Of a stretch of DNA of 64,000 bases, positions 13,443 through 53,961 are shown piece after piece (position 1 is the first letter of the stretch; every line of letters begins with the position of its first letter). A program made the translations under genes and the position numbers. This stretch comes from Vicinamibacterales bacterium. Its GTDB lineage: Bacteria; Acidobacteriota; Vicinamibacteria; Vicinamibacterales; 2-12-FULL-66-21. The stretch is taken from contig DATJFQ010000024.1 in assembly GCA_035495555.1 (NCBI GenBank), positions 5,705 through 69,704 on the forward strand, in the 5' to 3' direction. The notes beneath the pieces were generated by a model, which searched no databases, was not told where the DNA came from, and saw nothing but the letters and a program-made list of their open reading frames with translations.

Positions 13443-14096
13443 ATGCACTCCGTAGAGACGATTGAGCCGTTGCTGCGGGAGCGACTCGCTGGCACGCTGC
13501 CCGGCGTCGAGGTACAGCTTCGGTTCGCCTCCGGCTTGCCGCGCAAGGGTTGGAAACCCGGCGTCTATCCAAGTGATGCCAGGGTTGCCGCCGCGCTCCT
13601 GCTTCTCTACCCCGGTCCCGAGGGACTGACGATCCCGCTCACGGTCCGCGCGAGTCACTTACGCCGCCACGCGGGTCAGATCAGCCTGCCTGGGGGGGCC
13701 GCAGAAGCTGGCGAGTCACTCGAGGCGGCTGCGCTGCGCGAAGCGCACGAAGAAATCGGTGTGCCGTCGGAGTCTGTTCGCATTCTGGGATCCCTCACGC
13801 CGGTATACGTGCTCGTCAGCGGCTTCACGCTCAACCCGATCGTGGGCATCACCGACACGCGACCTGACTTTCGCGCAGCCGCGCACGAAGTCGATCAAAT
13901 CCTGGAAGTGTCGCTCGACGACGTGCAGGACGCTTCGCGGATTCGAACGGGCACGCGCATCCGCGAGGGGGTCGCCGTCGAATATCCGTACTTCGATCTG
14001 CACGGCCATCAAGTGTGGGGCGCGACGGCGATGATTCTGGGAGAGTTCATCTCGCTGCTGCAGTCGCGGGGCGGACACAGTGAGATCGCAGATTGA
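13443..14096 (+). CDS. Nudix hydrolase, CoA pyrophosphatase-like
   Basis: Nudix box LPGGAAEAGESLEAAALREAHEEIGV, preceded by LTVRASHLRRHAGQIS as in NudL/PCD1-type CoA pyrophosphatases. Confidence 0.8.
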   Translation: MHSVETIEPLLRERLAGTLPGVEVQLRFASGLPRKGWKPGVYPSDARVAAALLLLYPGPEGLTIPLTVRASHLRRHAGQISLPGGAAEAGESLEAAALREAHEEIGVPSESVRILGSLTPVYVLVSGFTLNPIVGITDTRPDFRAAAHEVDQILEVSLDDVQDASRIRTGTRIREGVAVEYPYFDLHGHQVWGATAMILGEFISLLQSRGGHSEIAD

Positions 14097-14132
14097 TGAT
14101 TGCAGATTGATGATTGCAGATTGCTGATTGCA
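14084..14132. repeat. Heptanucleotide tandem array (GATCGCA GATTGAT GATTGCA GATTGAT GATTGCA GATTGCT GATTGCA)
   Basis: Seven contiguous 7-nt units read directly. The array overlaps the Nudix stop codon (14094-14096) and ends 9 nt before the convergent methyltransferase stop (14142). Confidence 0.95.
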
Positions 14133-27689: not shown

Positions 27690-29648
27690 TCAGGAACGCT
27701 CCCGCGGCTCTTCGAGGTACGTGTACCCGTGCAGGCCGTCTTCGTAGAACTCGAGGAGACGGCCTGACTCTTCGAACGTCATGCGGCCCTCTCGAACGGC
27801 CAGCTCCACGTCCTGGCGCAACTTGCGCACCAGCGTCTCGGCATCGAACTCCACGTAGTCGAGCACCTCGCGGACCGTGTCCCCTTTGATGACCGCGTCG
27901 AGGACGACGCTCCCCGCGTCGTCCAGGCTGACGTGAACGGCGTGCGTATCGCCGAACAGGTTGTGGAGATCCCCCAGAATTTCCTGGTAAGCGCCGACGA
28001 GGAACACGCCGAGGTAGTACGGCTCGCCGTTGACGGTGTGCAGCGGCAGCGTCCGCTTGACGTCGCGGCGATCGATGAACGAGTCGATCTTCCCGTCCGA
28101 GTCGCAGGTGATGTCGCCGAGCACCGCATGATGGCTGGGCGGCTGATTCAGGAAGTGAATCGGCATCACCGGGAACAGCTGCTTGATCGCCCAGCTGTCG
28201 GGAATCGACTGGAACAGCGAAAAATTGCAGAAATACGTGTCGGCCATCGCGTCGTCGAGGCCCTGCAGGTCCTCGGGGACGTCTTCCATCTGCGCGACGA
28301 TCTTCTTGAGCTTGGCGAGAATCGCCCAATAGAGGTTCTCGGCCTGGCAGCGCTGGTCGAGCGGCAGATACCCGCCCGTAAACAGATTCAGCGCCATGTC
28401 GAGCGCCTGCTGGGCGTCGTGGTAGCTCTCGAGCGCGTTGCGGACCGACAGGTGTTGATACGTCTCGAGGAGGTCGATGACGGGCTGCTCCGCCTCGTCC
28501 GGCGAAATCGAATCGGGGATCTTTTCCTCGCCGAACGCCGACACCCCCAGCACGTTGAAGATGAGAACGCTGTGGTAGGCGACGATGGCGCGCCCGCTCT
28601 CGGACACGATCGTCGGGTGCTTCACGCCCGCATCGTCGCAGACGGTCTGAATGTGGTAGACGACGTCGTTCGCGTATTCCTCGAGGGTGTAATTCACGCT
28701 CGACTCGAAGTTGGTCTGGGAGCCGTCGTAATCGACGCCGAGGCCGCCACCGACGTCGAGGTACTCGAGACCGGCGCCGGCTTTGACCAGTTCCGCGTAG
28801 ATCCGCGCGGCTTCGTTCAACGCGCCCTTGACGATGCGGATGTTCGGGATCTGGCTGCCGAGATGAAAGTGCAGGAGCTTGAAGCAGTCCTGCATGTCGC
28901 GCGCCTTCAGCTCGGTCAGGCCGCGCAGCACTTCGGCAACCGTGAGGCCGAATTTGGAGCGGTAGCCGCCTGACCCCTGCCAGCGCCCACCGCCGCGCGA
29001 CGCCAGCTTGACGCGCATGCCGATCTGCGGCCTGACGCCGACCTTCTCCGCATACTTCAGGATGAGGCCCAGCTCCGTGTACTTCTCGACGACGGGGATG
29101 ATGTTGCGCCCGATCTTCTGGGCGAGCATCGCCGCTTCGATGTACTCGGCGTCTTTGAAGCCGTTGCAGATGATGGGCGTGTCGTTGGTCGCCTGCGCCA
29201 TCACGGCCAGCAGTTCGGGTTTCGAACCGGCCTCGAGGCCGAAGCCGTATTCCCGGCCGAAGTCGTGGACCTCTTCGACGACCTGCCGCTGCTGGTTCAC
29301 CTTGATTGGATAGACGCAGATGTAGCGCCCGTCGTAGTTGTGCTGATTGATCGCGGTCTGAAAGGCGTTGTGGATGTCGCCGATGCGATGGCGCAGGATA
29401 TCGGTGAAGCGAATCAGCACCGGGAGCCCGATGCCGCGGAGCATCAAGTGGTCCGTGAGCTGCTTCAGATCGATGCTGCGCGACGGATCCTTCGTCGGGT
29501 GGACGAGGACGTGGCCGTCTCTCGAAATCGAGAAGTACCCTTTTCCCCACCGATCGACTTCGTACAGTTCAGTCGCGTCGCTGACGGTGAAGATCTCTCC
29601 CGCCTGCCACGTGCGGTTCCTCGTTGTGGGGGTGCTCACTCGGTTCAT
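27690..29648 (-). CDS. speA: Biosynthetic arginine decarboxylase
   Basis: ATG 29648 preferred over GTG 29657. Full-length SpeA-like sequence: YEVDRWGKGYFSI, VYPIKVNQQRQVVEEV, HFHLGSQI, EYLDVGGGLGVDYDGS, LGDITCDSDGKI. Confidence 0.92.
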   Translation of the reverse strand: MNRVSTPTTRNRTWQAGEIFTVSDATELYEVDRWGKGYFSISRDGHVLVHPTKDPSRSIDLKQLTDHLMLRGIGLPVLIRFTDILRHRIGDIHNAFQTAINQHNYDGRYICVYPIKVNQQRQVVEEVHDFGREYGFGLEAGSKPELLAVMAQATNDTPIICNGFKDAEYIEAAMLAQKIGRNIIPVVEKYTELGLILKYAEKVGVRPQIGMRVKLASRGGGRWQGSGGYRSKFGLTVAEVLRGLTELKARDMQDCFKLLHFHLGSQIPNIRIVKGALNEAARIYAELVKAGAGLEYLDVGGGLGVDYDGSQTNFESSVNYTLEEYANDVVYHIQTVCDDAGVKHPTIVSESGRAIVAYHSVLIFNVLGVSAFGEEKIPDSISPDEAEQPVIDLLETYQHLSVRNALESYHDAQQALDMALNLFTGGYLPLDQRCQAENLYWAILAKLKKIVAQMEDVPEDLQGLDDAMADTYFCNFSLFQSIPDSWAIKQLFPVMPIHFLNQPPSHHAVLGDITCDSDGKIDSFIDRRDVKRTLPLHTVNGEPYYLGVFLVGAYQEILGDLHNLFGDTHAVHVSLDDAGSVVLDAVIKGDTVREVLDYVEFDAETLVRKLRQDVELAVREGRMTFEESGRLLEFYEDGLHGYTYLEEPRERS

Positions 29649-29706: not shown

Positions 29707-31887
29707 TCAGCGCGACGACGAACTGGAGAGATCGAGTGAGGGCCGAAGCTCGATGATGTGCGCGCGGGTGCCTTCCGCGGCGTCGATCCGGATCCCGTTC
29801 GCCGTCAGATCCGCGCCGCTCGTAGGCTCGAACCCGCCCCCGTCGACCGGGAGGATCTCGTACCTGGTTTCCGGGCGCAGCCCCTGCGGACGCACAGTGA
29901 TGTGGTCGCTGCCGCCCGCGTTCTGATACGCGAATATCAGCGACGTCCCCGACGCGAAGTCCGTCTCCTGGAGCACGTCCCATCGGCCCTGGTCGTCGTC
30001 GCCGACCTGAGGCGTGAGCAGTGTGGCGCTCGCGCCGCTGAGCGTGTCGCGAATGTCTTTGTAGATATCGATCTCGCGGCGGATGCCGGCCCGATCGTTC
30101 TCCGACAGGTCGGCGCCGCGCCAGGTCGTGCCCAGCATGCCGGGCATCCGGCTTCTGAAGGATGTCGTGAGATCGGTGGCGCCTTCAGGATCCTGCCATT
30201 CGCCATCGAAGACGAAGGACAGCAGCACCGGCGGCGGCATCACCACGCTGAGCCCTTCGAGGTTGTGGCGGACGTGGGGTGACGTGAACGTGCGGTCGTC
30301 CATCCACGCCGAGTCCGTCGAAGCGAGCATCCCGGGTTCGAGGCGGTTGCCGCCGCCGGAGCAATTCTCGATCAGCAGATCGGGATAGCGCTGCCGCAGT
30401 TCCGCGAGAATATCCAGCAACGCGCGATTGTGGGCGAAGTTGCCGTCGCCGGCTCCGTGGCCGTGGCCGCTGCGATCGCAGTTCACCCACGTGTTGTTGT
30501 CCCATTTCAGGTAGTCCGGATTGACATCGTCGATGAGGCGCGTGAGCCGCTCGAGGATCCAGTCGCGCGCCTCCGGGGACGCGAGGCAGATTTGCGCGGC
30601 TGGTGCCGTTTTGTTGGTGGACCCGGGACTGTACCGGCCATTGGACATCGCCAGCCAGCGCTCGCGCGCGAGACCCGGCTTCCCGACCGTATGCATGTCG
30701 ACGCGTTCCGGCTCCACCCAGAGACCGAACTTCATCCCGCGCTCGTGCGCGAAGTCGCTCAGCGCGCGGAGCCCGGACGGGAATCGATCCGTGTCCTCCT
30801 CCCAGACGCCGATGCCGGTCGTGAAGTCGGACGGGTCGCTTCCGCTCACATACCACCCCGCGTCGACCACGAACAGTTCGATGCCGAGGTCAGCCGCCGA
30901 GTCAATCTCCGAGCGCATCGACGCTTCGTCGATCGCCGTGCCGTACGCGAACCACGTGTTATAGGTCACCAGCGGCTGGTAGGGGCGCCCCTGGCGGACG
31001 GCGGCCATGACGAACGCCCGCATCGCTTCCGATGCGCGGCGGGTCGTCGCATCCGACAGCCCGATGTAAGCGTGGGGTGTCTCGAGCGGCGCCGCTGCCG
31101 AGGTGCTGAACGCGGGCAGGCCGACTGACGCGGCCAGCGAGTCGCCGTGGCGTGTAAGCGCGATCTGCCAGGATCCCGGCCAGAGAAGACCGCCGAAGAC
31201 GGCCGCCTTCTGCCGAATCACCTGAAACCAGGGCACCGCCTGTTCGGTCGCGCGTCCAGTCGCACCGATGTTCACGGAGGCGCCATCGTCCAGCGCGGTC
31301 GATTGCAGCGTGAAGCTGCCGCCGGCGTCGTCTGCAGTCTGCAGACCCGTGAGCCAGTGGATTCGGCCGTTGGCCATCGTCAGGTCGAGCCTGGGAAGCT
31401 GATCGATGTCAATCGCCCGCGAATCGGTCGGCGCGAGCGTCGTCCAGGACTCGATAACCGGCGCGCCCGCGTAACAGACGTAGTGGCGCTCGACCGAGAC
31501 GTGGAGATCCGCGGCTCGATACCGGGCGACCAGTTCGACGCCGGAACCGTACTGCGCGGTCGTAACGCCCTCGAAGGTGAATCCCTGCGTACTGAGGGTG
31601 CGGGTGGTTCCCGCCAGGGAAACGGTTGGTGGCGCGCCACTCGATGCAAGCCACTCCTCATCCGAACCAGGCGCGGTGAGACTGACCGGCATCAACGTGC
31701 GGTCGCGAGTCAACGTCAGTGTGAACGCAATACCCGGATTACCGATCGTGAAACTGCCGTCGTCTGCGCGATCGACATAGGCGTCGCCGTTATCGACCAG
31801 TCGCGTGTCGTCGCTGCGCACCGCCGTCGCCAGCAGCACGAGTGCCAAGGCGGTGACAGCCGTCCTGCGAAGTGGACTTCGGTGCAT
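29707..31887 (-). CDS. Secreted GH36-family alpha-galactosidase
   Basis: Start moved from 32490 to ATG 31887 (MHRSPLRRTAVTALALVLLATAV signal peptide). The upstream 200 codons of the track ORF translate heptamer repeats. GH36-type blocks: FVVDAGWY, DYLKWDNN, ENCSGGGNR. Confidence 0.8.
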   Translation of the reverse strand: MHRSPLRRTAVTALALVLLATAVRSDDTRLVDNGDAYVDRADDGSFTIGNPGIAFTLTLTRDRTLMPVSLTAPGSDEEWLASSGAPPTVSLAGTTRTLSTQGFTFEGVTTAQYGSGVELVARYRAADLHVSVERHYVCYAGAPVIESWTTLAPTDSRAIDIDQLPRLDLTMANGRIHWLTGLQTADDAGGSFTLQSTALDDGASVNIGATGRATEQAVPWFQVIRQKAAVFGGLLWPGSWQIALTRHGDSLAASVGLPAFSTSAAAPLETPHAYIGLSDATTRRASEAMRAFVMAAVRQGRPYQPLVTYNTWFAYGTAIDEASMRSEIDSAADLGIELFVVDAGWYVSGSDPSDFTTGIGVWEEDTDRFPSGLRALSDFAHERGMKFGLWVEPERVDMHTVGKPGLARERWLAMSNGRYSPGSTNKTAPAAQICLASPEARDWILERLTRLIDDVNPDYLKWDNNTWVNCDRSGHGHGAGDGNFAHNRALLDILAELRQRYPDLLIENCSGGGNRLEPGMLASTDSAWMDDRTFTSPHVRHNLEGLSVVMPPPVLLSFVFDGEWQDPEGATDLTTSFRSRMPGMLGTTWRGADLSENDRAGIRREIDIYKDIRDTLSGASATLLTPQVGDDDQGRWDVLQETDFASGTSLIFAYQNAGGSDHITVRPQGLRPETRYEILPVDGGGFEPTSGADLTANGIRIDAAEGTRAHIIELRPSLDLSSSSSR

Positions 31888-31973
31888 AGTTCTGTGGACG
31901 TACCAACGCGTGCAGCGGCCGGTTCGAACAGTTCGGACCGGCGCTGTGCGAAACGAGTACCACTCGTGCGGAA

Positions 31974-32530
31974 GGCGCGCGCACCTCGCGCCTCGCGCCT
32001 CCCGTCTCACGCCGCGCGCCGATCCGCCTTGTCTTGCGATGGGTCCCCGCTCGGACAACTCCGCCTCCGCGCAGGCAGAGACTCCGCCTGCGCTCCGGCG
32101 GGATCTCGCCGAAGCCGCTTCGCGGCGGAGGCGGACCCGCTTCGTGGTCGGCGGCGGGAAAGACTTCGACGAGGAGCCGCCTCCGCGCGACGCGCGCGCC
32201 CGTCCTCGCCCCCATCGCTGGTGAGGCGATCGGGCTCGCGCGCCTCTCGCCTCCCGCCTCGCGCCGCGCGCCTCGCACCGCGCGCCTCCCGCCTGACGCC
32301 GCGCGCCGATCCGCCTTGTCTTGCGATGGGGCCCCCGCTCGGACAGCCCGCTTCGTGCTCGGCGGCCGGAAAGATTGTCGACGAGGAGCCGCCTCCGCGC
32401 GAAGCGGGCGCCCGTCCTCGCGCCCATCGCTGGTGAGGCGATCGGGCCCGCGCGTCTCTCTCGCCCCACCTCCCGCCTCGCGCCTCGCACCTCGCACCTC
32501 GCGCCTCGCGCCTCGCGCCTCGCGCCTCGC
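31974..32530. repeat. Composite repeat region: heptamer arrays (GCGCCTC-type; 31974-32022, 32240-32302, 32466-32530) alternating with two copies of a hairpin-forming element (32009-32239 and 32296-32465; period 287 bp)
   Basis: Read directly. ACGCCGCGCGCCGATCCGCCTTGTCTTGCGATGGG...CCCATCGCTGGTGAGGCGATCGGG occurs twice. Copy 1 carries an extra ~80-nt internal hairpin. The last array abuts the TonB-dependent receptor stop (32531). Confidence 0.9.
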
Positions 32531-35380
32531 TTAGAAGTTGAAACGCACGCCGAACCTCGCGATGCGCGGATTCATGATTTCCGTCACCGCGTTGAACGTG
32601 TCGGCGTTTACGTTGTACTTCCGTCCGAGCACCGTGCCGCTGTTGAGCAGGTTGAACACATCGACATCGAACGACAGGTGCCGCGCGCCGAAGGAGAACT
32701 GCTTTTCGAAGCGGGCGTCGAGCGTCGACACGTTCGGCAGGCGGTACTTGCCCACATTGCTGCCGACCACCAGCACGTCCTTGAGGCCGTACACCGTTTC
32801 GTTCACCGACGTGTTGTCGGCAAAGAACATTTCCGAATATCCCTGACGAAGTGTCCAGTTCGCGCCAAGATTGACGCCCCACGGCCCCTGGTAGTACCCG
32901 TTCGCGATGAACTGATACTTCGGCAGGGTGAGATAGATCTGCGACTTGCCGCTGCCGGCGGTCGGGACGGTGACGGTCGCGCGGTTGACGAGCGGGTCGG
33001 ACGTGAGCGGGGTCGGATCCACGATGGAACGCGACGGATCGTCGAAATACTCCTTCTCCGAGTTCCAGGAGAACCCGAACCGCCCCATCCAGCGGTTCGC
33101 CAGACGCTTGGTCGCGGAGACTTCCACGCCGTTGAACGCCCGGTGATACCCCTCGCGGTTGGCCGTCAGCGTGCCGTTGCCGAGCGGCGTGGCCGCCTCG
33201 CTCAGCGCGTAGTACGGCTGGTGGACCGCCGTGCCGTCGGGCAGCGTCGCGTCGATATAGCCGTCGATCGCGTAGTCGGCGGTCGTGGCGCCAATGGGGG
33301 GAGCGACGTTCCAGAGCTGGTGCACGAAACGGCGCCACGTATAAGTGGCCGAGACGCCGAAGTTGGCCATCAGCTCGTGGTCGAGGCCAATCGCAATCTC
33401 GTGGGTGCGCGGCGCGCGGTAATTCGGGTCAATCTGATTGACTGGTCGTGTGGGGTCGGACGCGATGATGTTGCGCGACCCGAGGAACCGCCCGAGTTCG
33501 TCGGGCTCGATCTCGAAGTTCTGATTGCGGTCCACCGCGAGGTAGTACGAGTACGCATAGCTCGCCGCGGAAATGTTGCCCGCGACCGCCGCGTTCAGCT
33601 GTCCCGCGAACGACGAATAGCTCGCCCGGGCGATCGTCCTGCGCCCTTCGCCGATCGCGTACGTCAGCCCTGCGCGCGGCGACCACGTATTCCAGATGAC
33701 CGCATTCTTGACGGCCGGCGCGTCCACCGCCGGCAGGTCCTCCGGGACGACGGGATGAGCGTCGAGATGAATCGCGTCGGTCGAGGACGTCGCCCGATCG
33801 AAGCGCAGCGCCGCGCTGATCGTGAGCCGGTCCAGCGAGATCGTGTCGCCCGCGAACAATGAGGTGTACAGCGCGTGATTCACCTGATGGAAGGGCCGGA
33901 TGGCGATCGCTTCCGTGAGGTGTGTCTCGGGATCCAGCTCGAAATCCTCGAAGTCGCCGCCGTAACGCACCGTCGTGTCGTCCGTGTAACGGCGCGCGGA
34001 ACCGCCGAACTTCAGCTCGTGACGGCCGCGGAACCAGCTGCCGTCTCCGTTGAACACGACCTGCGGACGGTCGGTGTTTTCGTACAGGCTCGTGTTGTGC
34101 TGGACGCTGTTCGCGTCGATGAACACCTGCTTGTCGAGACCGCCTTTCGGCGTGAGCGAGAACGGCCCGTTGACGTGCGCGCCGCGCACGGTCAGAAACA
34201 GCGTGCTGGAGGCGACGTAATCGGCCTCCCCCTTGTACAGCTTCGACGGCCCGTTCTGAATCCACGTGGTCTCCGGTGGATTGTCCGGACCTGCGCCGCG
34301 CCCATCCTTCTTCTTGTTGCCGCTGAAGAACGTGAAGTTGCCGCGGAGCGCCTGCGTCAGGGCTGCGCTTGCCTTCGCGCCGATGTTCTCGAGCGTGGTC
34401 TTGTCGGGATAGCCGTCGAGCGTCTGAATGTTCACGTCCGTGCGCGCGAGCGATCCCCATCCCCAGAGGCGATCCTTGACGAGCGGGCCGCCGAGCTCAC
34501 CGCCGTAATCGGCGTACTTCGTGAGGCGATTGCCCTTCCCGCTCACGCCGCCGAGCGCGTCCACGAGATCCGCCGGCACGTTCGACGACTGGAGGTCTTT
34601 GTTCTCGTAATAGGTACGCGCGGAACCGTGCGCCGTATTCGTGCCGGACTTCAGCACGAAATTCATCTGCACACCCGCCGTGGCCTGCTGCGCGTCGGCT
34701 CCCCCTGTGGTGACCTGCATCTCCTGGAACATGTCGAAGTCGTAGTAACTGGGCGACGAACCGAGCGCGCTCATGTCGGTGATCGGAATCCCGTCCATGT
34801 ACCAGGTGTTATCGCCGGTCGAGGCGCCTTTCGCAATGTAGTTCGACTGCTGGCCGGATTCGGAGCCGCCAACGTTGACGCGGTCCACGATGACGCCCGG
34901 CACGGTCTGCAGCACGACCCACGGGTCCCGCGCCGATGGAATGTTTTGCAGCTCCTGGTTCGTGATGTTCGTGGAGATCGTCTGACGCTTGGGTTCGAGG
35001 ACCGGCACCTCCGCCGCGACCTGCACCTGCTCGGTGACCCCTCCGATGCCCATCGTGACGCGCAGCGGCACGACGCCGCCGGCGGTGACGGGGACGTTTC
35101 GGTTCAGGTAATCCGCGAAGCCGGACAGCGCGGCTCTCACCTGATACGTGCCGGCGGGGAGGTTCAGAAAATGCGCTTGCCCCTGCGCGTCGGTCGTGGC
35201 GCTCTGGTTCTGTGGTCCCGAAAGATCGACGGTCACGCCCGGGAGCACCGCGCCGGATTGATCCTGAGTCGTGACATCGATGCGGCCGGTGAATACCTGC
35301 GCGCCTGCCGGCGCCGCGGCACACACCATCGCCGCGCACGCCCACGCGAGCACGCGCTCGCGATGCAATGGATTGAACAT
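32531..35380 (-). CDS. TonB-dependent receptor with N-terminal CarboxypepD_reg-like domain
   Basis: Start moved to ATG 35380, preceded by a GGAGGG Shine-Dalgarno sequence. Has a signal peptide, the domain GRIDVTTQDQSGAVLPGVTVDLSG...GTYQVRAALSGF and the plug-like SARDPWVVLQTVPGV. The 949-aa protein ends ...ARFGVRFNF (terminal aromatic residue, typical of OM barrels). Confidence 0.85.
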   Translation of the reverse strand: MFNPLHRERVLAWACAAMVCAAAPAGAQVFTGRIDVTTQDQSGAVLPGVTVDLSGPQNQSATTDAQGQAHFLNLPAGTYQVRAALSGFADYLNRNVPVTAGGVVPLRVTMGIGGVTEQVQVAAEVPVLEPKRQTISTNITNQELQNIPSARDPWVVLQTVPGVIVDRVNVGGSESGQQSNYIAKGASTGDNTWYMDGIPITDMSALGSSPSYYDFDMFQEMQVTTGGADAQQATAGVQMNFVLKSGTNTAHGSARTYYENKDLQSSNVPADLVDALGGVSGKGNRLTKYADYGGELGGPLVKDRLWGWGSLARTDVNIQTLDGYPDKTTLENIGAKASAALTQALRGNFTFFSGNKKKDGRGAGPDNPPETTWIQNGPSKLYKGEADYVASSTLFLTVRGAHVNGPFSLTPKGGLDKQVFIDANSVQHNTSLYENTDRPQVVFNGDGSWFRGRHELKFGGSARRYTDDTTVRYGGDFEDFELDPETHLTEAIAIRPFHQVNHALYTSLFAGDTISLDRLTISAALRFDRATSSTDAIHLDAHPVVPEDLPAVDAPAVKNAVIWNTWSPRAGLTYAIGEGRRTIARASYSSFAGQLNAAVAGNISAASYAYSYYLAVDRNQNFEIEPDELGRFLGSRNIIASDPTRPVNQIDPNYRAPRTHEIAIGLDHELMANFGVSATYTWRRFVHQLWNVAPPIGATTADYAIDGYIDATLPDGTAVHQPYYALSEAATPLGNGTLTANREGYHRAFNGVEVSATKRLANRWMGRFGFSWNSEKEYFDDPSRSIVDPTPLTSDPLVNRATVTVPTAGSGKSQIYLTLPKYQFIANGYYQGPWGVNLGANWTLRQGYSEMFFADNTSVNETVYGLKDVLVVGSNVGKYRLPNVSTLDARFEKQFSFGARHLSFDVDVFNLLNSGTVLGRKYNVNADTFNAVTEIMNPRIARFGVRFNF

Positions 35381-35787
35381 GTTGTGGCCCTCCAAATGAG
35401 GGGTGCCGCTAGGCAATCGCAGTGCCCGCGTTCGTCGAACCGAAGCCGCAAGCCGCATTCTTGCAATCACTTGTGACGAGCGGCGCGTGCACGATGGCGT
35501 GACCCCCTCCAGTGGTGACCAATGCTGTCCGCGGTCGGCTCGCGGCGCGTCACGCGATGCGGGTTGCATCGCCGCGAGATTCAAGCGTCCGAAGATCGAC
35601 CGGGAAAAAATCGGAGATTCTGGATCGACAGGATGTCGAGAAGCTGTTCGCTCGGGCCCAAACCACTCCGGCGCGGGACATGACGAGTTCGTGATTTGGT
35701 GTCAGGACTGTAATCGTCGGCGCCGGCGATCACGCGAAAACGGCTGTTTTTCGCAGGTACTCCGCTTGCGAGTCGCAGACCTCATCC

Positions 35788-38153: not shown

Positions 38154-38209
38154 CTTCGTGCCTGGTGCTCGGTGCGGGGCGCTCGGTGCGGGGTGCTTGG
38201 TGCTCGGTG
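38154..38209. repeat. Heptanucleotide tandem array (CTTCGTG CCTGGTG CTCGGTG CGGGGCG CTCGGTG CGGGGTG CTTGGTG CTCGGTG)
   Basis: Eight contiguous 7-nt units with a 14-nt higher-order period. Ends 5 nt from the stop of the hypothetical gene (38215). Lies 77 nt upstream of the HTH gene start (38077). Confidence 0.9.
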
Positions 38210-38214
38210 CGGCT

Positions 38215-39582: not shown

Positions 39583-39641
39583 GCAGTTGTGTAGTTGGTA
39601 GTTGGTAGTTGGTAGTTGCGTAGTTGCGTAGCTCGCAGTTG
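39583..39641. repeat. Heptanucleotide tandem array (GTAGTTG-type: GCAGTTG TGTAGTTG GTAGTTG x3 CGTAGTTG ...)
   Basis: Read directly. Lies between convergent stops (methyltransferase 39559-39561, ogt 39657-39659). Confidence 0.9.
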
Positions 39642-39656
39642 CGGCGCGCCCCCGCG

Positions 39657-48558: not shown

Positions 48559-48663
48559 CGACTGGAAACTGGCGACTGGCAACTGGCGACTGGTAACTGA
48601 AGACTGGTAACTGGAAACTGGCAACTGGCAACTGGCAACTGAAGACTGGTAACTGGCGACTAT
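48559..48663. repeat. Heptanucleotide tandem array, 15 units of NNACTGG (minus-strand CCAGTTG-type) with a 42-nt higher-order period
   Basis: Units verified one by one: CGACTGG AAACTGG CGACTGG CAACTGG CGACTGG TAACTGA AGACTGG TAACTGG AAACTGG CAACTGG CAACTGG CAACTGA AGACTGG TAACTGG CGACTAT. Lies 1 nt from the HTH gene stop (48665) and 67 nt upstream of the A2M start. Confidence 0.95.
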
Positions 48664-49471: not shown

Positions 49472-50482
49472 ATGTCGTCCCGCTGCCTCAGTTTCCACGC
49501 CGGCTATCGATGCCGGCATTCCGGCGTCTGCTGTCGGGCCGGATGGGACATCCCGTTCGAAGGGCAGGAGCGTGAAGCCGTGGAGCGTCTCCATCTCGTC
49601 CCACTCGGCGCGTTCAGAGATGGCGCCGACGTGTCGTTCGCGGCGCGCCGCGCCGACGGGGCCTGCGTCTTCCTCGAAGCCGGGAATGAACGGGTGCTCT
49701 GTGGAATTCATCGCGCCGCGGGTCAGCAGACGCTGCCGGCCGCCTGCCGGATGTTCCCGCGGGTCGCGCTTCGGGACTCGCGCGGATGGACGGTCACGCT
49801 GTCGCACTTCTGCCCGACGGCCGCATCGCTCCTCTTCGAGGACGACGAGGACGTGCAGATTGTCGACGCGCCGGCTTCACTCATCGATGTGGGACCGCTG
49901 GAAGGTCTCGATGCCGCCGACGCCATTCCCCCGCTGCTGCGCGACGGCGTGCTCATGGATCTGGAGAGCTTTTCGGAGTGGGAGTCGCACGCCATTAGGG
50001 TCCTGACTGCACGCGGCTGCACACCCGAAGCGTCGGTCTCGCGGCTGGAAGAGCTGACTGACGAGCTCGCGGGCTGGTCGCCTGGCGAGGGGGAGCTGAT
50101 CGATCGCGTTCGGACGGTTTTCATGAGCGAGCGCCCACCATGCGGTGGGGGCCTCCAGGCCTGTTCTGCTGATGCCGCCGCGGCCGGGTCGCGCGCGGCT
50201 CAGCGATGGCTCGCCGGGCATCTGTTCGGCAACTGGATCGCGTATCAAGGGCGCGGCCTGCGCACGATCGTGCGATACGTGCGCGCGTGCCTCGACGTCT
50301 TTCGCATCGAACTCGCCCGCGATGGCGACGCGCTGGAGGCGATCCGGCGCAGCGACTATCTCATCGTGCATGAATCGGATTCGCAGCAGCTCGCGGCGTC
50401 GATCGATGGACTCGCGAGGCGCGAGGCGCGAGGCGCGAGGCGCGAGGCGGGAGGCGGGAGGCGGGAGGCGGGATTTGACTAA
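49472..50482 (+). CDS. Cysteine-cluster protein, YkgJ/FliB (flagellin lysine-N-methylase)-like family
   Basis: N-terminal FHAGYRCRHSGVCCRAGWDIPFE plus ACVFLE...LCGIHR and FCPT resemble the CxxCxxCC-type zinc/iron-chelating domain. The last ~23 residues (ARREARGARREAGGGRREAGFD) are encoded by a heptamer array. Confidence 0.5.
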   Translation: MSSRCLSFHAGYRCRHSGVCCRAGWDIPFEGQEREAVERLHLVPLGAFRDGADVSFAARRADGACVFLEAGNERVLCGIHRAAGQQTLPAACRMFPRVALRDSRGWTVTLSHFCPTAASLLFEDDEDVQIVDAPASLIDVGPLEGLDAADAIPPLLRDGVLMDLESFSEWESHAIRVLTARGCTPEASVSRLEELTDELAGWSPGEGELIDRVRTVFMSERPPCGGGLQACSADAAAAGSRAAQRWLAGHLFGNWIAYQGRGLRTIVRYVRACLDVFRIELARDGDALEAIRRSDYLIVHESDSQQLAASIDGLARREARGARREAGGGRREAGFD

Positions 50483-50540: not shown

Positions 50541-51767
50541 ATGAACGTCCTTGATCGATTTCTTCATTACGTCACCATCGATACGCGGGCGGACGACAGC
50601 TCGCAGACCTGCCCGACCACACCGGGACAACTCGAGTTGATGCACGTGCTCGACGCCGATCTGCGCGCGGTTGGACTTACCGACGTCTCGATCGACGAGA
50701 ACGGATATCTGATGGCGACCATCCCGTCATCGGTGACGCAGCCGGTGCCGACGATCGGCTTCATTGCGCACGTCGATACGTCGCCCGAGATGCCTGGCAA
50801 CGGCGTCGAACCGATCGTTCATCGTGCGTGGGACGGCTCCGACATCGTGCTGCCCGACGACCGGACGGCTGTGCTGCGGGTCGCCGACAACCCCGATCTA
50901 GCCGCGCAGGTCGGCAACGACATCGTCACTGCCTCGGGCACGACGCTCCTTGGCGCGGACGACAAGGCCGGCGTGGCGGCTATCGTGGCCGCGGCGGAAT
51001 ACCTGATGAAGCATCCGGAAGTGCCGCACGGCACGATCCGGATTGGATTCACGCCGGACGAGGAGATCGGGCGCGGCGCGAACCGCTTCGATGTGGAGCG
51101 ATTCGGCGCGACGTACGCGTACACGCTCGACGGCGGGTCGGCGGGAGAGCTGGAGTACGAGAGCTTTTCAGCCGACGTCGTCCGTGTCACGTTCGTCGGC
51201 TTCAATACGCATCCCGGGTTTGCGACCGGCAGGATGATCAATTCGATCAAAGCCGCTGCGCGATTCATCGATAGTCTGCCCGCCGGTGTGCTCTCGCCCG
51301 AGACGACGTCAGGATATGAAGGGTTCGTGCACCCCTATCATCTCGACGCGGCCGTCGATCGAACGACCGTTCGAGTGCTGCTGAGGGACTTCGTCACCGC
51401 GACGCTGTCTGACAAAGCCGAACTCATCGAGCGGGCTGCGCGCGATGCGGCGAGGGCGTTCGGTGCCACGGTGGAGATCGAGCGGCAGGAACAGTATCGC
51501 AACATGCGCGAGGTGCTCGATCACCATCTGGAAGTCGTCGACCGCGCCCGCAGCGCGATCATGCGGCTCGGACTGACGCCGATCGAGCGGCCGATCCGCG
51601 GAGGGACGGACGGCTCACGGCTGTCGTTCATGGGGCTGCCGACGCCCAACCTGTTTGCAGGCGAGCACAACTTCCACTCACGGCTGGAGTGGACGTCGCG
51701 TCAGGAACTCGAGCTCGCTGCGCGCGCAATCGTGGAAATCGCGCGAGAGTCAAACATGAATCCCTAA
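50541..51767 (+). CDS. pepT: Peptidase T (tripeptide aminopeptidase, M20B)
   Basis: Start moved to ATG 50541 (MNVLDRFLHYVTIDTRADDSS...). Contains HVDTSPE, GADDKAG, FTPDEEIG and full-length PepT-like order. Confidence 0.9.
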   Translation: MNVLDRFLHYVTIDTRADDSSQTCPTTPGQLELMHVLDADLRAVGLTDVSIDENGYLMATIPSSVTQPVPTIGFIAHVDTSPEMPGNGVEPIVHRAWDGSDIVLPDDRTAVLRVADNPDLAAQVGNDIVTASGTTLLGADDKAGVAAIVAAAEYLMKHPEVPHGTIRIGFTPDEEIGRGANRFDVERFGATYAYTLDGGSAGELEYESFSADVVRVTFVGFNTHPGFATGRMINSIKAAARFIDSLPAGVLSPETTSGYEGFVHPYHLDAAVDRTTVRVLLRDFVTATLSDKAELIERAARDAARAFGATVEIERQEQYRNMREVLDHHLEVVDRARSAIMRLGLTPIERPIRGGTDGSRLSFMGLPTPNLFAGEHNFHSRLEWTSRQELELAARAIVEIARESNMNP

Positions 51768-51924
51768 TCCCTAATCGCCAATCGTCGAATCCCTGATCCG
51801 TGAATCCTGAATCCCGAATCCCCGAATCCCCGAATCGTGATTGCTTAGCCGATATCCAGATGAGTAAGTAACTCAGCGCGCCGCACGCCGCATGCCGCAC
51901 GCCGCACGACGCGTGCCGCACGCC
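51758..51924. repeat. Two heptanucleotide arrays between convergent genes: GAATCCC-type (51758-51845, ~12 units) and GCACGCC-type (51876-51924, 7 units)
   Basis: Read directly. The first array begins inside the last codons of pepT (stop 51765-51767). The second ends at the base before the VWA gene stop (51925-51927). Confidence 0.95.
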
Positions 51925-53724
51925 TCACCTGACACGAAACGGCACAAGTGCTTGCGCGTGGGCGCTGCCGGACGCCGCGCGGAACTCGACGAGATATTCA
52001 CCCCTCGCCAGGGACGCGATGGGCAACGACGTCTCGTACTGACCGTCAGGGCGGCGCGTCAGCGGGAGATCGGCCAGGGCGACGGCTCCCTTGTTGAGGA
52101 GACGCGCCGTCGGCGCGGACGATGGCGCCAGGGTTCCGGCGAGGCCGACACGAATCACGACCCGGTCGGACCGCTCGAAGTCGTGGCCGGCGAACGGCAC
52201 CGCGGCGTCGTTCGATTCGATGTCGCGCAACTCGATTCCCGTGCGTGCACGAAAGACACGCGGCGACGCAAAGGCGATCGGCACGCGGCCGTAGTCTGGC
52301 ACCGTGACCGAGGTGGTCCGCGCGCCGAGCGAAGCGCCGCCGGTATCGGTCAGCGTCTGGCGGATATCGACCTCGCCGGGCGAGACGTCGAAGGTCGCGC
52401 TCCCGTTCACCGTGCGATCGAAAAAGAGACGACCGTCGGGTGACACGGCGCGGACCCGGATGCTGACGTCCGTCCGTGCCGATGACGGCAGCCACGCCAC
52501 CGTCATCGTGGGGTGACCTCCACCGGGTTGGGTGCCGACCCAGAGATCGCCGTCGGCCTCCTCGGGGCTCACGACGAGGGTGGAGAGCGCATGCGTGACC
52601 TCCGGCGGCACTTCTGCTGTGCTCGCCGATGCGCGTGCCGACGCGATCGCTGCCAGCGTCGGTGCGAAATAGCCGCGTCGAGCGTGGACCTCGAGGCCGG
52701 GCCGGCTCACATGCACATCGATCTTATGGAACTTGCCGTCGGCGGGATTCCTGGACGAGCTGTACCCAAGCAGGTAAAAGGCGCTGTTCTCGGTCACCAT
52801 CTGCAGGAGGCGCTTTGCCGGCGCGTTGCTGCGCACGCTTTCCGCACCCGTGTCCGCGGACACCGACATCAGGACGCCGCTCATCAGCCCGAGGCTGCGG
52901 GGATCGAAGGTATAGACGGCCGTGTTGTTCTGATTGGCCTGCCGGATGAAATCCCGCAGCCAGTCCGCCTGGTCCGCCGGTCCGCCCATGGGACCAAAAT
53001 CCTCGGTCACGAGGAGCACGGCCTTGCGCCCTTCCTTGATCGTGCCGAGAAAGCCCACCGTCGCCTCGAGCGCGGACCGCGACACCTGTGAGCGCAGTCC
53101 CTCGACGTTCCCCGCCCGATAGAGCTGCGCTTCCTCCATTGCGCTGCGCGGCGGCAGGTATACGCCTCGCCGTCCTTTGAGCTTCGCCACCGTTTCGGCC
53201 AGCGCCCTGCGATCGCGCGTGAACTCGATCGCGTCCGACGGCGTGAGCTGATCGGTGATGGCCACGAGGTCCGTCGGCCCGAACGCGTTGAGCACGAGAT
53301 CGGTCAACGCTGCACGACCGCGGATGGCGGGCTCGAACTGGTCGATGTGGTACTCGTCCCAGAAGACGACGAACACGCGGACGTCGTCGCGCGCGGCTTC
53401 CGCGTAAGCGTGCTCGCGCGAACGGATCGGCAGCGACAGGTCGTCGGTCGGTTGCCCGTCAGTCTCGAGAAACCGGAACGCTTCGATCGTTTGCGGTATG
53501 CCGTCTTCGCTGACCGCGAAGTCGTCGCGTGTGAGATCCGTGAGCGGCTTGCCGTGTTTGTCGAGGACCGTGACGTCGACGCGGACCAGGTTTGTCGCCG
53601 CGCGAAACGTCGGCTGCTGCTGAGCCGCCGGCGGCGGCGCCTGTGCGCCGAGCAGCGCCGACGCAATCAACGCCGCAGCGCCGGCCGCCAACACCGCGCG
53701 GGGAAACCACATGGGAAGTTCCAT
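51925..53724 (-). CDS. VWA-domain protein with VWFA-related acidobacterial N-terminal domain
   Basis: Signal peptide, then PTFRAATNLVRVDVTVLDKHGKPLTDLTRDDFAVSEDGIPQTIEAFRF, which is characteristic of the TIGR03436-type family (from memory), followed by a VWA-like fold. The start is at 53724 or Met 53712. Confidence 0.8.
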   Translation of the reverse strand: MELPMWFPRAVLAAGAAALIASALLGAQAPPPAAQQQPTFRAATNLVRVDVTVLDKHGKPLTDLTRDDFAVSEDGIPQTIEAFRFLETDGQPTDDLSLPIRSREHAYAEAARDDVRVFVVFWDEYHIDQFEPAIRGRAALTDLVLNAFGPTDLVAITDQLTPSDAIEFTRDRRALAETVAKLKGRRGVYLPPRSAMEEAQLYRAGNVEGLRSQVSRSALEATVGFLGTIKEGRKAVLLVTEDFGPMGGPADQADWLRDFIRQANQNNTAVYTFDPRSLGLMSGVLMSVSADTGAESVRSNAPAKRLLQMVTENSAFYLLGYSSSRNPADGKFHKIDVHVSRPGLEVHARRGYFAPTLAAIASARASASTAEVPPEVTHALSTLVVSPEEADGDLWVGTQPGGGHPTMTVAWLPSSARTDVSIRVRAVSPDGRLFFDRTVNGSATFDVSPGEVDIRQTLTDTGGASLGARTTSVTVPDYGRVPIAFASPRVFRARTGIELRDIESNDAAVPFAGHDFERSDRVVIRVGLAGTLAPSSAPTARLLNKGAVALADLPLTRRPDGQYETSLPIASLARGEYLVEFRAASGSAHAQALVPFRVR

Positions 53725-53749
53725 CGGCAGAATAGCGCGTATTGCAAGA

Positions 53750-53961
53750 GCGTTGAATCCCCAATCCCTAATCGCCGATCCTCGGATCCCTGATCCTCAA
53801 ATGCCTGATCCTCGAATCCCTGACCCCGAATCCCCGAACCCCTGATCGCGAATCCGCGCATCCCGAATCGCGGATCCGGCGATGCTGGATGCGGGATTCG
53901 GGATGCGGGATGTGGGATCGGGGATTCGGGGATCGGCGATAAGGGATAAGGGATTCAACGC
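53750..53961. repeat. 212-nt inverted heptamer-array hairpin (C-rich GAATCCC-type arm and complementary G-rich GGGATTC-type arm) closed by a perfect 12-bp clamp
   Basis: GCGTTGAATCCC (53750-53761) and GGGATTCAACGC (53950-53961) are exact reverse complements. The interior units are largely complementary. The right clamp overlaps the xthA stop (53955-53957). Confidence 0.9.

Follow-up and report, generated by a model that had tools for sequence, protein, structure and literature searches.

Several kinds of described repeat come close to the spacer analysed here. The bacterial MITEs that we used for comparison, ERIC/IRU of enterobacteria, Correia/NEMIS of Neisseria and RUP of Streptococcus pneumoniae, are whole-length imperfect palindromes. 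The REP, BIME and REPIN elements of E. coli and Pseudomonas reportedly go together with RAYT transposases. In rice, the eukaryotic MITE Micron targets microsatellites and inserts into (TA)n arrays. Heptameric simple-sequence repeats (SSRs) of the GGGNATC type have been described in Xanthomonas and Nostoc, and a quadruplex rationale has been put forward for them (Rehm et al. 2015, PMC4692102). Nothing specific to Vicinamibacter repeats was found in the literature.

We analysed a 64,000-nt stretch of contig C24 (hereafter the window; a window position is the contig coordinate minus 5704) and focused on the 643-nt (~640 bp) intergenic spacer at 31888-32530, which separates the stop of a TonB-dependent receptor gene (32531) from the start of a GH36 gene (31887), both on the minus strand. 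Our reading, to which we give a probability of roughly 0.7, is that members of a MITE/REPIN-like hairpin repeat family and simple-sequence arrays together make up this spacer, behind the receptor and at the edge of the GH36 gene. The receptor gene (32531..35584, minus strand) carries the Pfam domains CarboxypepD_reg, Plug and beta-barrel, and its start codon is uncertain. The GH36 (Melibiase, Pfam) alpha-galactosidase gene occupies 29707..31887 on the minus strand with its ATG at 31887, and is followed by the arginine decarboxylase gene speA (27690..29639, minus strand), the ancestral downstream neighbour of the receptor.

Read along the plus strand, the spacer runs from a unique leader through array 1, element copy 1 with a nested palindrome, array 2 and element copy 2 to array 3. 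This order emerges from the sequence, TRF and HMM searches alike, and bears out the alternation of arrays with two hairpin copies described in the first-pass annotation. The leader (31888..31973, minus strand) is 86 nt of non-repetitive sequence directly upstream of the GH36 start codon, in which BLAST and nhmmer find no member of the hairpin repeat family and which does not align to the ancestral spacer of the congener (genome G001). A small palindrome, CCGGTCCGAACTGTTCGAACCGG, lies within the leader at 31915-31937, ~30-50 nt upstream of the GH36 start, and could be an operator or a small hairpin. Array 1 (31980..32020, plus strand), with 5.9 units of CGCGCCT type by TRF, is continuous with the left arm of copy 1. 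Copy 1 (32010..32247, plus strand) is a long variant of subfamily A, interrupted by a nested palindromic module of ~75 nt (32061..32135, plus strand; TCCGCCTCCGCG...CGCGGCGGAGGCGGA) that corresponds to the extra hairpin noticed earlier in this copy. The left arm (32010-32060) and right part (32136-32247) give the nhmmer matches C24:37714-37764 and C24:37840-37951. Array 2 (32237..32307, plus strand) has 9.9 TRF units and a 21-nt higher-order period. Copy 2 (32297..32458, plus strand; nhmmer match C24:38001-38162) is a short variant of subfamily A, with its conserved hairpin core at ~32317-32435. Array 3 (32469..32530, plus strand; 8.9 TRF units, 94% matches) adjoins the receptor stop codon TAA at 32531-32533.

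Several details of the first-pass annotation could be checked directly against this layout. The start and end strings that it quoted are found in both copies. The internal pair CCCGCTTCG...CGAAGCGGG, which it also assigned to both, is intact in copy 2 only, while copy 1 retains CCCGCTTCG (32136-32144) and has CGACGCGCG as the right-arm partner. As for the gene borders, the receptor stop does abut array 3, but the GH36 ATG is at 31887 rather than 31888. The long ORFs across the region, taken there for artefacts, are indeed over-extensions, and a gene caller based on codon usage cuts the GH36 ORF back so that it no longer reaches into the repeats.

The same element is dispersed through the genome. 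Copy 2 has 67 BLAST matches in its own assembly (4.43 Mb, 123 contigs), with E values of 1e-40 to 1e-70 against other genomic copies, and by these matches the repeat pattern of the spacer is far above chance. A genome-wide BLASTN search had been proposed beforehand, with a core unique to this locus as the outcome that would speak against the element; the core is multi-copy. An nhmmer profile built from 27 full-length copies yielded 107 matches, which represent ~95 copies with lengths of 110-240 nt. Small, non-coding, multi-copy and dispersed, the family has these traits in common with MITEs. Subfamily A, which includes both window copies, is ~160 nt long with 89-97% identity among copies, and subfamily B consists of the ~110-nt core alone with 75-90% identity among copies. 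The long variant with the ~75-nt nested module accounts for ~16 genomic copies across both subfamilies.

We then examined where the copies lie. All 107 nhmmer matches are intergenic, though 88% of the genome is coding (3439 genes from a codon-usage model). Where both neighbours are known, 43 matches fall in spacers between tandem genes, 29 between convergent and 3 between divergent ones, whereas spacer-length shares predict ~45, 11.5 and 18, respectively, which indicates that copies gather at gene 3' ends and avoid promoter-only spacers. In tandem contexts, 17 copies have the same orientation as transcription and 26 the opposite one, and there is thus no strand preference. Copy 2 is most similar to a copy on contig C62 (95.7%), with the neighbouring copy 1 in only 15th place (90.2%); on these ranks we reject a tandem duplication as the origin of the window copies. 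At the loci on C117, C43 and C82, adjacent copies are each other's nearest relatives.

Heptamer arrays are likewise a genome-wide feature. By TRF, period 7 is over-represented, with 1033 rows versus 313 for period 6 and 400 for period 8, and period-7 repeats amount to ~0.9% of all genome bases. The GCGCCTC/CCGCCTC family comprises 107 array loci, only 32 of which contain an element. The median distance from the start of such an array to a stop codon is ~8 nt, and neither orientation is preferred with respect to the mRNA. All 57 arrays within 40 nt of an element share the strand of that element. Within 60 nt of a heptamer array we found 50 of the 57 subfamily A matches, in sharp contrast to 7 of the 50 subfamily B matches, which is the 13% intergenic baseline; the association with arrays is therefore a property of subfamily A and not of the core. 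The phases of the array-element junctions are fixed per subfamily, the left array being in phase with the left arm in nearly all copies and the phase of the right junction tracking the right-end variant that a copy carries. The units at the spacer are GAGGCGC, GAGGCGG and GAGGTGC, none of which has the run of three or more G per unit that marks a G-quadruplex heptamer SSR. Further heptamer arrays lie elsewhere in the window at 48559-48661, 51757-53956, 50413-50470, 14084-14132, 38164-38211 and 39585-39643, and their units (ACTGGCA, GAATCCC, CGCGAGG, GATTGCA, GGTGCTC and AGTTGCG) are unrelated.

To characterise the hairpin we combined structure prediction with covariation analysis. Each window copy is predicted to fold into a single long imperfect hairpin, at -96 kcal/mol for copy 2 and -136 kcal/mol for copy 1. 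The single-sequence z-scores of these folds are modest (-2.1 to -2.6) because any such GC-rich sequence folds well, so the proof of the hairpin rests on covariation. Alignment A1, from which covariance model R1 was derived, holds 46 distinct copies from the window genome, copy 2 among them. In it, 94% of cells are paired versus 41-55% in slid controls, 13 pairs show changes on both sides, and none of 500 shuffles reaches the observed values. Alignment A2, made of 19 copies from other genomes, has compensatory changes at 30 of 37 pairs and 92% of cells paired versus 39-48% in slid controls, a margin that is still large given that A2 was fitted to R1, which favours structure. The hairpin is thus maintained through compensatory changes. 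A lack of such changes had been named in advance as evidence against the element, and the covariation analysis contradicts it.

Additional features of the core stand out in these alignments. Four unpaired motifs, CAGCCCCA, GTGCTCGGCG, CTCCGCGC and GGGGCGCCCCGT, are conserved, and one U·G pair is kept in 44 of the 46 copies of A1 and 14 of the 19 copies of A2. This pair would be superfluous for a purely double-stranded palindrome and would count against a plain-repeat reading. Setting it aside, mismatches of the G·U and A·C types are balanced, which singles out neither strand. The core ends are GCGATGGGG...CCCCATCGC in the window genome and GCGGGTCC...CCACCCGC in relatives.

We next surveyed the relatives. 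Of 151 genomes drawn from the whole order, 19, belonging to several families, gave full-length matches to R1, and the other 132 searched gave no match. An exact-motif scan of one genome per species (185,579 species) returned at least 119 loci, and among the matches listed nearly all are Vicinamibacterales/Acidobacteriota MAGs. The hairpin family is thus distributed order-wide in soil acidobacteria. The listed motif matches also include two in Micromonospora (L118, L171), with the longest allowed spacing and in apparently coding sequence, which are probably due to chance, the DNA being GC-rich; a few others, from non-acidobacterial MAGs, are on contigs of 2-3 kb that appear to have been mis-binned. 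In the congener G001, BLAST finds no match to the element. R1 detects four core copies there in tandem, repeating every ~177 nt with ~55 nt between them and free of heptamers; this cluster (locus L071, G001:C116:28000-28649) is located at the end of a contig, next to where a minus-strand gene starts. Separately, the ~75-nt nested module recurs at 87-90% identity and in at least 8 copies within a different composite repeat of another genus (genome G003, loci L211-L214), and that repeat has TAAGAG...ACTTAAGAG-like ends on its flanks. This recurrence shows the order's repeats to be modular mosaics.

The termini of the element differ from genome to genome. In relatives, the cores are enclosed by extra complementary outer arms that are constant within a genome and different between genomes. 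The types seen across relatives are AGAGTGCGTTGCAAAATTAGCTC, ACAGGCGGTTTCATAACCT, GGCTGAATCAG and GATGTAAAGCGC. None of the relatives' outer-arm motifs occurs beside the copies of the window genome, where subfamily A has its own arms. As in MITEs, inverted repeats define the ends: the arms are complementary over the whole length, and the relatives add their distinct outer repeats. The terminal inverted repeat AGAGTGCGTTGCAAAATTAGCTC is present in at least 80 copies in one ~10-Mb MAG (G169). Of the 12 copies of this type that could be read there, 9 have identical four-base direct repeats just outside the two ends, TAAG/TAAG or TTAG/TTAG, which suggests a probable TWA(G) target duplication. In the window genome a duplication cannot be read, as arrays mask it for subfamily A and intergenic divergence from the congener masks it for subfamily B.

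Insertion polymorphism, another trait of MITEs, was evident in comparison with the congener. We compared five orthologous sites, C62 and C66 for subfamily A and C77, C95 and C22 for subfamily B, and all five are empty in G001, with neither element nor array. Both flanking genes are conserved at each of these loci, and the spacer measures 10-53 nt in G001 versus 163-281 nt in the window genome; the intergenic DNA of these filled and empty pairs is too diverged for exact insertion boundaries. The spacer downstream of the congener's receptor is element-free as well.

That receptor spacer also records the history of the locus. The orthologous receptors of G001 and of G010, a member of another genus, share the RFNF* ending of the window receptor, and speA comes immediately after them. 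The window speA (27690-29639) is 96% identical to that of G001, and the last ~65 nt before it, in the GH36-speA spacer, still align with the ancestral G001 spacer. At E<=1e-20, 15 genomes of the same family, the congener included, yielded no GH36 homolog, and the sole match, 40% identical, is in another family. Given the conserved neighbours and the residual alignment, GH36 and the repeat spacer replaced the first ~225 nt of the ancestral spacer. GH36 is therefore a lineage-specific insertion between receptor and speA. The recombination hotspot proposed in the first-pass annotation draws some support from the spacer's coincidence with this insertion junction, although as a single case the coincidence is circumstantial. 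With respect to genome plasticity, a gene was gained here at a repeat-filled junction, which is relevant to the role of the repeats there.

We also searched for a partner that could mobilise the element. Neither the window genome nor the MAG that carries at least 80 copies yielded a transposase with matching ends, and that MAG has no pair of terminal repeats at insertion-sequence spacing. The genes that lie between inverted element copies are ordinary host genes. A related autonomous insertion sequence (IS) with the same ends, as MITEs have, was thus not found in these fragmented assemblies, a result that does not prove its absence. The only transposase found within an element copy belongs to a single-copy IS110-family IS outside the window (C55:19952-21463), which interrupts a subfamily A element near profile position 112 and encodes a 418-aa ORF with DEDD_Tnp_IS110 and Transposase_20 domains. 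IS110 relatives are known to target REP-like palindromes, and the present instance is a single one. As an autonomous partner this IS was rejected, given that its ends are unrelated and it is itself inserted into an element copy. The genome further contains two RAYT-like Y1_Tnp genes, at C68:60875-61207 (L038) and C90:19953-20267 (L039), and neither of these contigs has an nhmmer match to the element. Both genes have another short repeat at their flanks, which translates as KKGDN/KKRGQP; genes and repeat may constitute a separate REP/RAYT system in the same genome.

These data allowed us to weigh other explanations of the spacer. The core might be a host-selected element, acting as a U-tract-independent terminator, an mRNA 3'-end stabiliser or a site for a nucleoid or topology protein, which was carried by or co-opted from mobile repeats and whose order-wide conservation would reflect function. 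REP and ERIC elements are known to have such roles. This proposal would account for the conserved unpaired motifs and U·G pair, for a core whose sequence and structure are kept across several families while the outer arms are swapped, and for the strong bias towards gene 3' ends. Yet 132 of the 151 order genomes searched show no match to the core, it is missing from all five orthologous sites of the congener, its copy number varies from a few to at least 80, its orientation is indifferent to transcription, and the sporadic G·U and A·C mismatches are balanced, favouring neither strand. Moreover, the spacer contains no detected U-tract terminator, and on balance we regard a host-selected core as rather unlikely. 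Substantially less probable is a REPIN population moved by RAYT, the REP-associated Y1 tyrosine transposase, with the hairpin representing two inverted REP units. Two RAYT-type genes are present, and ~100-nt extragenic hairpins in about a hundred copies that persist with compensatory changes are REPIN-like. The two genes are flanked by another repeat instead of the element, the GTAG/CGTC terminal tag of the REP superfamilies is absent from the core ends, and a relative's element has terminal inverted repeats with probable TWAG duplications, features that Y1 transposition does not yield. Nor do we see the alternating REP units with defined linkers of a BIME, as the copies within clusters are co-oriented with heptamer arrays between them.

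Two further possibilities had been raised in the first-pass annotation. One was a structured RNA or processing site specific to this locus, set between the receptor and GH36 cistrons of a single transcript. The two genes are co-oriented, the predicted hairpins are very stable, and our scans, limited to canonical signals, recognised no sigma-70-type promoter in the spacer and no U-tract-type terminator in 31700-32700. The element nevertheless stands beside ~95 unrelated gene pairs in both orientations, Rfam 15 has no covariance-model match at E<=1 on either strand of 31000-33500, and GH36 is a recent insertion, with an ordinary spacer lying behind the congener's receptor. Such a dedicated site is accordingly very improbable. 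The other, named there as a refuting outcome, was the remnant of a degraded coding sequence, a notion to which only the long ORFs spanning the region lend anything. These ORFs are heptamer arrays translated into low-complexity repeats and fail codon-usage scoring, and the sequence itself is a multi-copy palindrome found between genes only, which leaves a coding remnant with practically no credibility. The MITE-like insertion that had also been suggested fares far better: the element is dispersed and polymorphic, and terminal inverted repeats along with probable target duplications are seen in relatives. Its supposed duplication together with an array did not hold for the window copies, which are no simple duplication.

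Returning to the reading of the spacer as mobile hairpin repeats and arrays, we infer the mode of copying as follows. The hairpin repeat (~110-nt core; ~160 nt in subfamily A) would be copied, now or until recently, to new intergenic sites, and copies would survive mainly just 3' of genes because the element must not disrupt genes or promoters. The GCGCCTC-type arrays would expand by slippage up to neighbouring stop codons. Subfamily A may integrate into heptamer arrays in a sequence- and orientation-specific manner. Alternatively, a founder in one array might have spread to others through recombination or gene conversion, with array sequence on either side supplying the homology. Copying of the latter kind would preserve orientation and junctions automatically, without calling for a target duplication. 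Groups of two or three copies would stem from tandem multiplication by unequal exchange, and the window spacer would have received two insertions in an array, one of the long and one of the short variant.

The core itself deserves a separate comment. That the termini differ between genomes while the core is kept across families is the reverse of the typical MITE pattern and hints at selection on the core. This leaves some room, albeit on the unlikely side, for a selected hairpin function or for a mobilisation system that recognises hairpins. With equal reserve, one could picture the ~110-nt core as a functional structured nucleic acid (ssDNA or RNA) whose hairpin, instead of the termini, is read by an enzyme, with subfamily A propagating by way of arrays. 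Hairpin recognition and array spread, if true, would link the two repeat classes of the lineage mechanistically. If transcribed, the hairpins would be expected to form stable 3' structures behind the receptor message.

These findings have consequences for annotation and beyond. As the same repeats occur genome-wide, the spacer is not a control element made for this locus and should not be read as an operon-specific regulatory RNA; the ORFs crossing it are to be treated as artefacts. About 22 contig ends fall in element copies, where the repeat family breaks the assembly. For a soil order that is large and almost uncultured, the analysis describes a family of hairpin repeats whose structured core is conserved and whose outer arms are interchangeable. 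The confinement of subfamily A to the arrays of one heptamer, in constant orientation, is an unusual case in bacteria, and array-directed spread, should it prove true, would tie the heptamer arrays of the lineage to its hairpin repeats.

Set against the described systems, the element resembles ERIC, Correia and RUP in its general build. Like them, it is non-coding, 100-230 nt long and present in tens to hundreds of copies, with arms complementary over most of the length, an extragenic location with a 3'-end bias, and long and short variants set apart by an internal module. Its presence or absence likewise varies among close relatives, and terminal inverted repeats with a short probable target duplication are seen in relatives of this genome. 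In contrast, there is no sequence relation, the host belongs to a different phylum (Acidobacteriota, Vicinamibacterales), and no partner insertion sequence was found here. The usual pattern is moreover reversed, with the core kept across the order and the termini swapped between genomes, and one subfamily lives only inside heptamer arrays, in one orientation.

With REP, BIME and REPIN elements, the family shares extragenic hairpin repeats of ~100 copies, several per spacer, long-term persistence with compensatory evolution, and the presence of RAYT-like genes in the genome. It departs from them in that these genes are not flanked by the element, that the copies of a cluster are co-oriented whereas BIME units alternate, and that the GTAG/CGTC tag is lacking. 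The heptamer SSRs of Xanthomonas and Nostoc are matched here in the over-representation of period 7 and the intergenic position of the arrays. The arrays of this genome differ in hosting a hairpin element, and the quadruplex rationale is not obviously applicable to GAGGCGC/GAGGCGG units without GGG runs. Finally, Micron is eukaryotic and bound to (TA)n, and copying in the present case may be driven by homology instead of targeted transposition; it nonetheless offers a close parallel to subfamily A, as a small non-autonomous element confined to arrays of one simple repeat.
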